DNA of 64,000 nt, taken from the IMG/VR virus record IMGVR_UViG_3300045988_051359. The stretch is one strand, 5' to 3'. This DNA is from a virus. The notes below the pieces were generated by a model. That model saw nothing but the letters and a program-made list of their open reading frames with translations, ran no database searches and was not told the DNA's origin. Shown piece after piece: positions 54,681 through 56,669 of this stretch; within the stretch, counting starts at the first letter, position 1, and every line of letters starts with the position of its first letter. The translations under genes were made by a program, and so were the position numbers.

Positions 54681-56399
54681 CTAGCCTTGTTGAGCGGACA
54701 TAGTGCGCTTATTATAAATTGGCTTCTCAGCCTTCACAGGCTTACTCTGCACGCTTGCATTCTTTCTCGGCGCGTCCTTCTCCAACACCATCATATTCAA
54801 GAGTTCTTGATTCATCATGTAATCGAACAACTCTTTAGGTGTACTAGGATTCTGGAATCTCTTCTCTCCAGTTATAAATCCAGCAGTGGACTGACTTAAT
54901 CCGTTAACAAAGAAACAATTAGAAACATTGCGAATCAATTCAACTTTAGGCTTAGTCTGTTTAGAAGCTAAATGCCAAATAATTAATTTAAACTGTTTAA
55001 CAAACTCTTTGCTAAATCCAGCTTTTAAGAGTTTAGATTTAAATTCAATGAATTGTTCACTGGTGTTTCTTAGATGTCCCAATGCTCCACTGATTACTAA
55101 GCAGCCATTTGGAAATTCACCTTCCCGAATTCCTCCAGATTTAATAGATACGAGCATATCTGCAATCATAGACAGAGTTGGATTAGTTACTAAGGCTTCC
55201 TCAGTATCTGAAATCCACTTACTAGTAGGAGTAGTACCTTCCCACTTACGTAAATCACATCTATTATTAGCAAATACACCATACATGCCAGAGAACGCTA
55301 CAGGCATTAATTCGGAATGATACATAGCATAAGCCTTACCAACACTATAAGCAGAAGTTTCAGTAGCTTCTATCTCAGAATAAGCAGAATTACTAATGTC
55401 TCTAATTACTAATAGTGGCGATGCTTTCTTTAGCTTAGCATTCTTCACGAATGTATTAAAACTAACATCTATAGAAGAACCCATGAATTCTGGTACAAAC
55501 TCCGCAATTTTATCAAGTCCAAATGGCTTAAATAAATTATGCACAAATCCGTCATTACAGGGCTTTCTACGAGTCTTCAGCCATTTCTGATACTTCTCTG
55601 CAAGACCTTGTTGTTTGAGGAATTTAGAGCCTACTAGCAGTGCCAGAGCCTTTCCTGGAACTGTATCAAAGTCGATGTCAAGTAATCTCTTATGGCTTAT
55701 TAATTGCTGCCATTTCATAACTGTACCGCTGTTCTTCATCTTTCTATACTTACGATAAGATGAATAGTCTCCTTCCTCTTTCGGTTTACCATAAAGGCCT
55801 TCAGCTAGATATTTAGCAACTATGTTACGGGCTTTCGCCTCGTCTGTCTTACATATAGTATTAGCTCGAACTCTAGGAAGATACTTCTTTACTAAGTCAC
55901 ATGTTTGCCCTTCTACTAAGCCAGCATAAATAGTCTTTCTAAAGAAATCCCAATCTAGTCTATGCTTATATCCATGTAATTGAGCATCCATTACTAACAT
56001 ATTAATAAAGTCCTTCCAGCATCCTGCTGCCGCAAAGTAAGGCATGTTGGCATGGAACGTAGATTTATGATATGTTGCCAACCACATCATTCTTAATAAA
56101 CCTTCATTCTTTAGACCAACTCCTCGCTGTGTGTCTAAGTAAATAACTCCATTAGGAGTAACTACTCTGCATTTACGTGTAATAAGTCTTACATAGGCAG
56201 TAAATTTGACACACAGCTTTGGATTGGCCTTCCATAGTTCATACATATCTTGACTAACGTCTTCATAAGAACGTGGTTCAAGATAGTGCGCAAGGTTTAC
56301 GAATTGGTCCACAAACACTTTAGTAGGATTTGTATACCTTCGTCCCCCACCTTGAGAGGGCTTAGAGCAAGCCTTTTTAGGCCTTTCATTCATTTCCAT
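54681..56399 (-). CDS. large vWA-domain protein, possibly Ro60/TROVE-like RNA-binding protein
   Basis: 572 aa; MIDAS 'DISNS' at ~residue 334 followed by a vWA-like region. Domain order (~330-aa helical N-terminal part then vWA) matches Ro60/Rsr. Flanked by tRNA-like RNAs. Confidence 0.35.
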   Translation of the reverse strand: MEMNERPKKACSKPSQGGGRRYTNPTKVFVDQFVNLAHYLEPRSYEDVSQDMYELWKANPKLCVKFTAYVRLITRKCRVVTPNGVIYLDTQRGVGLKNEGLLRMMWLATYHKSTFHANMPYFAAAGCWKDFINMLVMDAQLHGYKHRLDWDFFRKTIYAGLVEGQTCDLVKKYLPRVRANTICKTDEAKARNIVAKYLAEGLYGKPKEEGDYSSYRKYRKMKNSGTVMKWQQLISHKRLLDIDFDTVPGKALALLVGSKFLKQQGLAEKYQKWLKTRRKPCNDGFVHNLFKPFGLDKIAEFVPEFMGSSIDVSFNTFVKNAKLKKASPLLVIRDISNSAYSEIEATETSAYSVGKAYAMYHSELMPVAFSGMYGVFANNRCDLRKWEGTTPTSKWISDTEEALVTNPTLSMIADMLVSIKSGGIREGEFPNGCLVISGALGHLRNTSEQFIEFKSKLLKAGFSKEFVKQFKLIIWHLASKQTKPKVELIRNVSNCFFVNGLSQSTAGFITGEKRFQNPSTPKELFDYMMNQELLNMMVLEKDAPRKNASVQSKPVKAEKPIYNKRTMSAQQG

Positions 56400-56597
56400 C
56401 TTGTAAAATTAAATTAGCAGGTTAATCTGAGAGTTCTTTATTCTAATTGATAAAATGGGACACATAGACATCGAGCCAGCTTAATACAACTCGCTACTTA
56501 CACGCTACATGCCCCATATCAAATGAGGAAAGAGGTTCACTTGATGACCTATCTACGTGCTGATTATAACGTAGACCGTGCAGATTCTCTCTTACAC

Positions 56598-56669
56598 AAT
56601 ACTATGATGGACTCAAACCATCTCCACCCAAGTCCTAGTTGGGCGAACTTTCCATTATTCTAATAGTAC
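56598..56669 (-). tRNA. tRNA with anticodon AGG (would read CCU/Pro; A34 unusual for bacteria)
   Basis: Perfect anticodon stem CCCAA/TTGGG with loop CTAGGAC, acceptor GTACTAT/ATAGTAT, D-stem GAAT/GTTC, T-arm GATGG-TTTGAGT-CCATC. 72 nt. Confidence 0.55.

Follow-up and report, generated by a model that had tools for sequence, protein, structure and literature searches.

A protein of 572 amino acids encoded on a 64,000-nucleotide stretch of gut-phage DNA (IMG/VR record IMGVR_UViG_3300045988_051359; hereafter, the window) is, judging by sequence comparison, a member of the large and uncharacterised DUF2828/DUF7788 family, and we incline to the view that, as an analogue of Ro60/Rsr in both structure and genomic setting, it binds structured small RNAs in RNA quality control or repair. 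The observations behind this view concern the family to which the protein belongs, its fold class, the structures of the RNAs and the neighbourhoods of the gene. In the lineage of the window, a structured RNA of about 300 nt, which evolves separately, precedes the gene; it is composed of the RAGATH-34 motif, an acceptor/T-arm module and several hairpins.

Ro60/Y RNA particles constitute an RNA-surveillance system that has long been studied and is poorly understood, and the link of bacterial Ro60 to RtcB-based tRNA repair is recent. If the DUF2828/DUF7788 family works like Ro60, the Ro-like strategy would be far more widespread than TROVE searches reveal, and would include abundant phages of the human gut.

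Family membership and domain architecture

The ORF that the first-pass annotation described as a 572-aa vWA protein is real: it occupies 54681..56399 on the minus strand and has many homologs; of the 8000 candidates that were scored, 763 qualify at E <= 1e-3. In the Pfam scan, the window protein is without a match to PF25043 and reaches 17.7 bits against PF11443, for which the cut-off is 29. Homologs at 40-47% identity pass both models, so that membership of the window protein in DUF2828/DUF7788 is assigned via transitive homology; its alignment with close homologs from the family, at 40-67% identity, runs from end to end. The family comprises 2753 cluster representatives. At E <= 1, a threshold looser than the Pfam gathering cut-offs, PF25043 is matched by 41 and PF11443 by 37 of 42 diverse members. 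A sequence search of the PDB with the protein or the family profile as query gave no useful match, and a phage collection held no close relative of the window, the sole protein match being a Leptolyngbya phage at 33% identity. No paper on DUF2828 function was found in the literature; the RtcB link described below may nonetheless already have been reported.

The domain order proposed in the first-pass annotation, a helical repeat followed by a vWA domain as in Ro60, is borne out. Residues 1-326 (55422..56399, minus strand) form an all-helical repeat domain with one beta-hairpin at 75-91, and residues 327-540 (54780..55421, minus strand) form a C-terminal vWA (DUF7788) domain. In hhalign comparisons the latter aligns with the vWA domain of Ro60 at a probability of 95-97% and E-values of 1e-10 to 3.5e-8 (95% and 3.5e-8 with deep alignments), and Pfam-type matches among family members include PF25043, VWA_2 and vWA_Ro60; PF25045 is weakly matched by 7 of the 42. 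By these profile comparisons, the vWA domain of the family is homologous to that of Ro60.

The DISNS motif that had been reported about 60% of the way along the protein, after a long helical region, is present as a DxSxS sequence (D334-I-S336-N-S338; 55386..55400, minus strand) at 58% of the length, but it is the remaining part of an incomplete MIDAS. In the alignment, the position of the MIDAS Thr is taken by Pro407 and that of the MIDAS Asp by Gly438. Across the 152 loci surveyed, Thr and Asp are lost in all 28 loci of the window subclade, while the full D-S-S/T/D set is found in the 124 others; the family at large keeps all five residues and the window protein D-S-S only. As read from these alignment columns, the MIDAS of the window clade is degenerate, with two of its five residues lost.

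The tentative assignment of the protein to TROVE was not upheld, and the profile signal comes from the vWA half only. PF05731 (TROVE) is absent among the matches listed (25 of 32 matched families) at E <= 1 for the 42 members, which include the window protein. An HMM of true Ro proteins touches only the strand-helix of the MIDAS, at no more than 19 bits, and finds no match in the N-terminal domain. When deep alignments of 225 family members and 129 true TROVE proteins were compared by hhalign, the N-terminal domain reached a probability of 0.5% and an E-value of 0.12 (0.65 with shallow alignments), in the same range as cross-domain controls (0.06-0.75). Homology to TROVE over the full length, suggested by a first hhalign comparison (95.6%, 423 columns), was rejected once the domains had been split and the alignments deepened, since the signal then proved to be that of the vWA domain only. 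The match to PHROG 850, an automated cluster labelled 'RNA-binding protein', is not independent evidence, because the cluster contains both true phage Ro proteins and the DUF2828/DUF7788 family.

Structure comparison gave a divided answer. In a full-length search with the predicted structure, Ro60 structures were the top matches, but the N-terminal domain modelled alone matched generic HEAT/ARM repeats and did not retrieve Ro60. We read the window protein as a Ro60-like variant without recognisable TROVE-family membership, which bears out the first-pass annotation in part; it is possibly a Ro60/Rsr homolog that has diverged beyond recognition.

A structured RNA upstream of the gene

Upstream of the gene lies a RAGATH-34 motif (Rfam RF03103; 56665..56762, minus strand), which is absent from the first-pass annotation. 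It matches the full model (positions 1-107) at 86.9 bits, where the gathering score is 60.7, and abuts the element called tRNA-Pro(AGG). Its layout consists of a P1 hairpin, a 4-bp outer stem, a 5-bp hairpin with an invariant CUGANGA loop and a long variable hairpin, and its conserved strands are UGACUUAAA and GUUGAAACCU. The structure for the covariance model was written by hand, because RNAalifold missed it on the raw MAFFT alignment. This purpose-built model scores the window copy at 77 bits; compensatory changes are found in 16 of 18 pairs (33 distinct sequences), and 94% of cells are paired, versus 22-42% in slid controls. Exact-pattern scans also hit coding regions by chance, namely in prophage genes of enterobacteria and in a gene of a gut bacterium; the covariance model removed these matches. 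A hammerhead ribozyme was considered and rejected: CUGANGA and GAAAC are present, but the flanking helices are missing and covariation points to a closed hairpin. Pairing of the single strands of RAGATH-34 with downstream motifs amounts to 4-5 bp at most and was likewise discarded. The Rfam entry describes the motif as an sRNA of unknown role, and no paper on it was found in the literature.

In 51 of the 54 evaluable near-clade viral loci, the motif lies ahead of the gene at a distance of 237-480 nt, and a further locus has a shortened copy upstream of the gene. Among metagenome copies, 24 of the 25 that could be evaluated stand ahead of the gene, and a copy without the gene was traced to a chimeric or rearranged contig. 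Two near relatives have the gene and lack RAGATH-34; one locus has RAGATH-34 and no such gene within 6 kb downstream. None of the 79 loci at or below 41% protein identity carries the motif, which is restricted to relatives at 42% or above. Co-conservation of the gene with neighbouring RNAs, which the first-pass annotation had raised, is therefore real but confined to one phage lineage with conserved gene order.

Directly 3' of RAGATH-34 lies a tRNA-shaped module (56598..56669, minus strand), called tRNA-Pro(agg) by ARAGORN and scored at 49.6 bits by the Rfam tRNA model. It had been noted as a well-folded odd tRNA; the call and the clean cloverleaf stand, but the element is tRNA-shaped in this strain only, and a tRNA is called for just 2 of its 31 sequence variants. 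What is conserved is a 7-bp acceptor stem and a T arm, and these stems covary in 25 of the 31 variants, while the D/anticodon region is variable or deleted and the distance from the 5' acceptor strand to the T arm varies between 30 and 42 nt. Phages with a 98%-identical protein have lost the anticodon arm (CCTAGGGG), the anticodon-loop sequence is different in every sublineage, and the T loops are non-canonical (e.g. UGCAACU, UUUGAGU). Hence, the element called tRNA-Pro(AGG) is no tRNA for decoding but a variable acceptor/T-arm module that is fused to the 3' side of RAGATH-34.

The module is followed, on the same strand, by two conserved hairpins, H5 with a GAGAA loop (56578-56597) and H6 (56551-56576). 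The alignment shows compensatory differences among related loci in the region 56551..56597, for instance CTACG/CGTAG versus CTCATG/CATGAG versus CCCCAC/GTGGGG. About 55 nt before the start codon, the MFE fold places a long terminal hairpin with a U-rich tract after it (56455..56517, minus strand). This element is terminator-like and went unlisted by a simple terminator scan, since the loop exceeds the length that the scan allows; its stem shows covariation when the window is compared with L001 or with L095, two related loci. The MFE fold of the whole 371 nt has a z-score of -3.4. Throughout the intergenic RNA, invariant blocks and covarying stems are kept while the flanking protein falls to 43% identity.

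An Rfam search of positions 54100-58900 found no Y RNA family at E <= 5, a negative result that is weak because Rfam found none beside six true phage Ro genes either. A Y-RNA-like stem, GGUCUGA/UUGACU (GGUC/GACU), which resembles the metazoan Y stem, was dismissed, as a different hairpin covaries and the stem is not conserved in the sister clade.

Other RNAs of the window

The candidate large RNA that had been reported at 58293-58805 is real and is identified by Rfam as a phage tmRNA (58290..58805, minus strand; RF00023, 55.7 bits, E = 3.7e-19, gathering score 47), for which ARAGORN makes no call. Orthologs are found in related phages, upstream in L001 (96 bits) and in L004 (78 bits), and the alignment contains a probable tag ORF at 58686-58715, with GNTEVRMAA as its reading before a stop.

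Both degenerate tRNA-like elements of the first-pass annotation match the Rfam tRNA model and receive no ARAGORN call. The one about 110 nt downstream of the ORF (54503..54572, minus strand; 40.6 bits) has an aberrant, fast-changing anticodon loop, which differs between the window and a 98%-related phage; at the orthologous positions, L001 has a 'tRNA-???' and L095 an odd 'Leu-CAA' of 75 nt. The other (63751..63854, minus strand; 43.5 bits in a local search) combines a canonical acceptor stem and T arm with a 35-nt insert in the D loop and a 4-nt 'anticodon' loop. With an identity of at most 66%, no tRNA of the window is the recent source of any of the three tRNA-like elements. ARAGORN counts 27 tRNA genes in the phage, of which 26 are plausibly decoding after tRNA-Pro(agg) is dropped; this element and the two other matches to the tRNA model should not be counted as decoding tRNAs in annotation. 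An RNA ligase is encoded at 685-2073 of the window.

Gene neighbourhoods in phages and bacteria

Neighbourhoods were surveyed in about 150 phage and 38 bacterial loci, out of the 2753 family representatives. In phages, 54 of the 82 diverse loci with a homolog have tRNA genes within 3 kb, in every case on the strand of the gene, and a tmRNA lies upstream of the gene in the window, L001 and L004. True phage Ro genes have similar surroundings: in Gordonia phage Sixama, Ro is followed by tRNA-Asn, a tmRNA and further tRNAs, and in Streptomyces phage Mildred21, tRNAs lie upstream of the Ro gene.

In bacteria, the commonest neighbour is RtcB (PF01139, E = 4.5e-36), which is found in 11 of 37 loci, a linkage limited to about 30% of them, mostly upstream and in the same orientation; 7 loci have a divergent WYL-WCX regulator. 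Two of the bacterial loci have five tRNA genes between rtcB and the family gene, and in another a 109-nt tRNA-shaped RNA, not called by ARAGORN, occupies this position. RtcB was not detected in the window, and the RtcB neighbourhood holds for the family in bacteria, not for the window. One family member is fused to a domain of the 2H/2'-5' RNA ligase superfamily (E = 2.7e-24). Taken together, the genomic context of the family supports a Ro-like role.

Proposed role and alternative explanations

In the role that we propose, the protein would bind structured small RNAs, such as tRNAs, tRNA fragments or tRNA-like RNAs, and would provide a scaffold for the quality control or repair of RNA. Such a scaffold could help the translation apparatus to keep working during infection by a phage that also has tRNAs, a tmRNA and an RNA ligase. 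Its adjacency to the gene makes RAGATH-34 the foremost candidate partner RNA, as an analogue of Y RNA, and this orphan Rfam motif would thereby gain a candidate function; the acceptor/T-arm minihelix is probably an RNase P-type processing site that would free RAGATH-34.

The protein might instead be a MIDAS/vWA protein-protein adaptor or chaperone cofactor of the NorD, CbbO or ViaA kind, with the adjacent DUF7873 protein as a possible partner, and owe its likeness to Ro60 to convergence on a common two-domain layout. Homology to Ro60 is indeed confined to the vWA domain, and the MIDAS is complete in 124 of 152 loci, which implies a metal-mediated ligand. In the sister clade, moreover, the gene overlaps a downstream DUF7873 gene, and the window subclade has lost both DUF7873, of which a search of the window found no homolog, and the two MIDAS residues. 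However, this co-loss is a single evolutionary event, and a conserved MIDAS is no argument against a Ro-like function, because Ro60 itself keeps one, of unknown role (PMC12135203). Since no MoxR-type ATPase recurs as a neighbour in the phage or bacterial loci examined, and the neighbours that do recur are RNA-related (RtcB, tRNA arrays, tmRNA and the 2H-domain fusion), we consider an adaptor of this kind unlikely.

The upstream RNAs, for their part, could be unrelated to the protein: RAGATH-34 and the minihelix would then form an independent small-RNA or processing cassette within a long tRNA/tmRNA transcription unit, the degenerate tRNA-like elements would be decaying tRNA pseudogenes, and the adjacency would reflect conserved gene order in one lineage. 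We regard this as doubtful, though a more serious possibility than the adaptor. It accords with the restriction of RAGATH-34 to relatives at 42% identity or above, which also share the tmRNA and flanking genes, with the loci in which gene and motif occur without each other, with the decay or deletion of the tRNA-like part in several sublineages, and with anticodon loops that vary even among 98%-related phages. Against it stand the persistence of invariant blocks and covarying stems despite the divergence of the flanking protein, and the fact that unrelated bacterial loci, too, have tRNA genes or a non-canonical tRNA-like RNA directly ahead of the gene, so that a neighbour of this type recurs beyond the phage lineage. 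That 56598-56669 holds a functional tRNA-Pro (anticodon AGG), which widens the decoding capacity of the phage, is very improbable: the ARAGORN call, the Rfam score and the cloverleaf that suggest it are set against the scarcity of tRNA calls among its orthologs, the loss or variation of the anticodon arm and the non-canonical T loops, and the phage already encodes a tRNA-Pro(tgg) according to ARAGORN. To our knowledge, moreover, a tRNA-Pro with A34 is not a normal bacterial species.

Beyond the Ro60-like role preferred here, a broader proposal is speculative, and we give it rather little credence: DUF2828/DUF7788 might be a second branch of Ro60-like RNP scaffolds, independent of TROVE or unrecognisably diverged from it, that would work with RtcB and tRNA-type RNAs in bacteria and, in large gut phages, with an analogue of Y RNA formed by RAGATH-34 and its tRNA-like tail, protecting or repairing translation RNAs against tRNA-cleaving defences of the host. 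If this were true, a function would be supplied at once for a DUF family that ranges from phages to plants and for the orphan RAGATH-34.

Comparison with known systems

The closest comparison within the family is direct, as the window protein is itself a DUF2828/DUF7788 protein, but one that differs from the others in scoring below the PF11443 cut-off and in belonging to a subclade without the MIDAS Thr and Asp. With Ro60/Rsr it shares size (about 540-570 aa), the order of helical repeats followed by a MIDAS-type vWA domain, and a vWA domain that is homologous by profile alignment; in addition, the phage genes of both adjoin tRNA arrays, tmRNA and tRNA-like RNAs, and the bacterial genes adjoin RtcB. 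In contrast to Ro60/Rsr, the N-terminal domain has no detectable TROVE sequence signal or Ro60-specific structural match, Pfam places the family under DUF2828/DUF7788, the MIDAS of the window clade is degenerate, the bacterial regulator of DUF2828 loci is a WYL protein and not RtcR, and the RNA next to the window gene is RAGATH-34 with an acceptor/T-arm module and not an RNA of the YrlA type.

The upstream RNA resembles YrlA, the tRNA-like domains of tmRNA and minihelices in having an acceptor stem on a T arm, a U...A T-loop signature and a dispensable anticodon region. Unlike in YrlA, its ends are not in a Ro-binding stem, there is no conserved GNCGAA or bulged-helix motif, and the module has the topology of a normal tRNA, in which the acceptor stem bears the free ends; in a further difference from tRNA-like processing or mimic modules, it does not encode CCA. 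It agrees with RAGATH-34 as defined in RF03103 in its full-length model match and in a structure upheld by covariation, but here the motif is the 5' part of a larger conserved RNA that continues into a tRNA-like module and hairpins, and it lies upstream of a Ro60-like gene in nearly all copies found. The rsr-yrlBA-rtcBA RNA-repair operon, in which the Ro60/Rsr gene stands with Y RNAs beside RtcB (PMC7790460, PMC4201824, PMC7824862), is mirrored by the bacterial loci of the family, with rtcB and intervening tRNAs or a tRNA-shaped RNA (PMC7790460, PMC4201824).

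The ORF and its relation to Ro60

The 572-aa ORF at 54681-56399 (minus strand, from the ORF listing) is a real gene, since 763 homologs were found at E<=1e-3 among 8000 candidates scored from a 90%-clustered database; the family profile matches 2753 cluster representatives. Homologs are located on contigs of ~95-190 kb, many with a human gut label. The match of the window protein to Pfam DUF2828 is marginal (17.7 bits), and homologs at 40-47% identity to it carry PF11443 (DUF2828) together with PF25043 (DUF7788, vWA domain). One member of the DUF2828/DUF7788 family carries a fused 2H/2'-5' RNA ligase-superfamily domain. 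The stop codon of the ORF is TAG, with only 6 extra residues upon readthrough.

In the AlphaFold model (pLDDT 81, pTM 0.54), helices extend to residue 323 with one beta-hairpin and are followed by an alpha/beta vWA fold, so that the modeled architecture is Ro60-like. Structure comparison gave 13.3 and 263 for D. radiodurans Rsr (2nvo), 11.4 and 296 for the Ro60 of Thermus phage phiLo (9l5y), 11.0 and 273 for Xenopus Ro60 (1yvp), and 9.2 and <=186 for the best vWA-only match. Searches of the PDB by Foldseek and by sequence returned no match.

The first-pass annotation had tentatively described a Ro60/TROVE-like protein and proposed a profile comparison with TROVE as a check. Genuine Ro proteins were represented by the human, Xenopus and Rsr sequences from PDB entries and by six phage proteins with the annotation "Ro-like RNA binding protein". 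The initial profile-profile comparison of whole proteins gave 95.6% (E 1.2e-8, 423 columns), a match that suggested full-length homology to TROVE; this reading was ruled out when the domains were compared separately, as the whole signal fell in the vWA half (97%, E 1e-10), versus 0.1% and E 0.65 for the N domains. In deepened alignments of 129 true TROVE proteins and 225 family members, the vWA domains matched at 95% (E 3.5e-8), and the N domain reached 0.5% and E 0.12, the level of cross-domain controls (0.06-0.75). The Ro HMM contacts family members solely at the DxSxS strand-helix (<=19 bits). True phage Ro (E 4e-137), family members (E 1.6e-63) and the window protein (9e-9) all match PHROG 850 ("RNA-binding protein"), which reflects only the remote-homology clustering of PHROG itself. 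Thus, the window protein shares its layout with Ro60, its vWA domain is homologous and its N domain is a helical repeat; sequence comparison does not show membership in TROVE.

Loss of MIDAS residues

The MIDAS noted at first pass (DISNS) is retained in part. Its DxSxS residues (D334, S336, S338) are invariant in the aligned loci, and the conserved Thr (GSTNF) and Asp (SDGEF) of the family are replaced by Pro407 and Gly438 in the window protein (55080-55100 and 55180-55200, residues ~405-407 and 437-439 of the ORF). Both are gone from the window's subclade (28/28 loci, 63-99% identity) and kept in all 124 other loci. In the sister clade (43-46% identity), a DUF7873 gene overlaps the 3' end of the Ro-like gene; DUF7873 is absent from the window and its subclade. 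The co-loss is a single event and therefore suggestive only.

Structured RNAs upstream of the gene

RAGATH-34 (RF03103; 86.9 bits in Rfam) is located at 56665-56762 and ends exactly at the start of the predicted tRNA. When the collected loci were searched with a covariance model of its core, 51 of the 54 evaluable near-clade viral loci (>=43% protein identity) had a single copy each, in the gene's orientation and 237-480 nt upstream of it; the locus L113 was left out, its upstream sequence being too short to judge. The model found no copy in the near-clade loci L129 and L130, nor in any of 79 loci at <=41% identity; the co-conservation proposed as a check is real but confined to one phage lineage. 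One copy (L097) lies only ~230 nt upstream of the start of the tblastn match, and a shortened copy occurs at 42% identity (L022). Covariation is strong, with compensatory changes in 16/18 pairs and 94% paired cells versus 22-42% in slid controls. A metagenome pattern scan followed by the covariance model yielded 28 copies, 24 of which have the Ro-like gene 237-403 nt downstream; three other contigs were too short to judge and one was chimeric. The sole copy found outside this context, at 6102-6188 (minus strand) of L182 (IMGVR_UViG_3300010373_000003), has no Ro-like gene within 6 kb downstream; it lies ahead of a replication module and a 108-aa ORF, and where the tRNA-like module would follow there is a plain hairpin. 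L129 and L130 do without the 5' module, and L182 carries only that module, which makes the RNA look like a gene that is separable and not like an obligatory leader.

The odd "tRNA-Pro(AGG)" reported earlier at 56598-56669 is indeed tRNA-shaped, but among 31 orthologous variants just 2 receive a tRNA call. Its anticodon arm is deleted in phages with a 98%-identical protein, and other sublineages have differing loops or a remnant hairpin alone; a decoding tRNA was accordingly rejected. The conserved, covarying core is present in 25/31 variants and consists of a T arm with a U...A loop on which a 7-bp acceptor stem is stacked, the two being spaced by 30-42 nt. Since acceptor stem and T arm are conserved and the anticodon region is not, the element is a tRNA-like structural module. 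It is followed by conserved hairpins H5 (56578-56597) and H6 (56551-56576), then by a long terminal hairpin and its U tract; for the full 371-nt upstream RNA region, the fold z is -3.4.

tmRNA, tRNAs and translation-related genes

The large RNA suspected at 58293-58805 proved to be a phage-encoded tmRNA (58290-58805, minus strand; Rfam 55.7 bits, no ARAGORN call), with conserved counterparts in related phages that score 96 and 78 bits. Its tag ORF at 58686-58715 (minus strand, frame read by eye) plausibly encodes GNTEVRMAA followed by a stop. Both degenerate tRNA-like elements of the first-pass annotation match the tRNA model: 54503-54572 (40.6 bits) has an aberrant anticodon loop that differs even between 98%-related phages, and 63751-63854 (minus strand; 43.5 bits in Rfam, local search only) carries an insert of 35 nt in the D loop, with a loop of 4 nt replacing the anticodon loop. 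Compared with the window tRNAs, none of the tRNA-like elements is a recent copy.

The window represents the replication/nucleotide-metabolism arm of a large phage, with RNA ligase (685-2073, minus strand; phrog_968, E 1.5e-44), DNA ligase, helicases, NrdD and a PurZ-like enzyme. The latter, a homolog of the PurZ-type adenylosuccinate synthetase of the 2-aminoadenine pathway (40445-41599, minus strand; phrog_1211, E 2e-43), suggests that the phage may have modified (Z-base) DNA. ARAGORN called 27 tRNAs, including one of suppressor type with anticodon CTA (52262-52334, minus strand, labeled "Pyl"), which hints at TAG recoding. The mechanically listed 289-aa ORF at 53236-54105 (minus strand) has no Pfam or PHROG match; it overlaps tRNA-Gly (54011-54083), and its true start must therefore be further downstream. 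Together, the RNA ligase, Ro-like gene, tmRNA and 27 tRNA calls look like an RNA-repair/translation-maintenance toolkit.

Genomic neighborhoods in phages and bacteria

Co-oriented tRNA genes lie within 3 kb of the homolog in 54/82 diverse phage loci, and their arrangement takes at least a dozen forms. True phage Ro genes likewise adjoin tRNAs: they are upstream of Ro in Streptomyces phage Mildred21, and the order in Gordonia phage Sixama is Ro, tRNA-Asn, an unannotated tmRNA and further tRNAs. This tmRNA (88 bits in Rfam; L208 3468-3889, NC_070762.1 ~88707-89128), just downstream of Ro between tRNA-Asn and tRNA-Arg, is missing from the NC_070762.1 feature table. Within 2.5 kb upstream of homologs in other phages, a group I intron (L007 1437-1647) and abiF RNA motifs (L007 625-662, L008 1583-1620) were also observed.

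In 38 bacterial/MAG loci, neighbors were clustered and compared with Pfam. RtcB is the commonest neighbor of the DUF2828 gene (11/37 loci), usually upstream on the same strand, and a divergent WYL-WCX regulator occurs near it in seven loci. Five tRNA genes separate rtcB from the DUF2828 gene in L337 (an 8-Mb Saprospiraceae chromosome) and L349; other loci instead encode an unknown 220-aa protein there, once or twice and sometimes as a tandem duplicate, with no Pfam match (in Saprospiraceae, L346 1263-2613, L353 1651-3002 and L357 4265-4927). In Fusibacter MAG contig CAZFST010000014.1 (L363 1855-1963), a 109-nt tRNA-shaped RNA lies between the two genes. Its anticodon region contains an insert of 43 nt, and it has 51.4 bits in Rfam, a fold z of -3.7 and no ARAGORN call. 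This RNA is a candidate for a bacterial analogue of Y RNA.

Interpretation

The reading with the best support makes the window protein a Ro60-like variant, an RNA-associated scaffold with helical repeats and a vWA domain from the DUF2828/DUF7788 family. It would act on tRNA-type RNAs within the toolkit by which the phage maintains translation. A candidate partner is the RAGATH-34/tRNA-like RNA, and the tRNA-like minihelix is probably a processing signal. From architecture and neighborhood, we infer RNA binding, a role in repair and the protein-RNA partnership. One main rival makes the protein a protein-directed vWA adaptor; the other attributes the adjacent RNAs to mere synteny.

Ro60 in phages and Y RNAs beside Ro60 are known, and for the DUF2828/DUF7788 families and RAGATH-34 there are catalogue entries but no characterisation. 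In the literature searched, there appears to be no description of the DUF2828 family's Ro-like placement (with RtcB, tRNA, tRNA-like RNA and tmRNA) or of the near-constant association of RAGATH-34 with its gene. In Salmonella, rsr-yrlBA-rtcBA combines Ro60, tRNA-like Y RNAs and RtcB (PMC7790460, PMC4201824), the same layout as in the bacterial DUF2828 loci with a tRNA-type RNA between rtcB and the gene; the DUF2828 loci also agree with the "ROT/TROVE platform with a tRNA-like partner" described in jumbo phages (PMC7824862).
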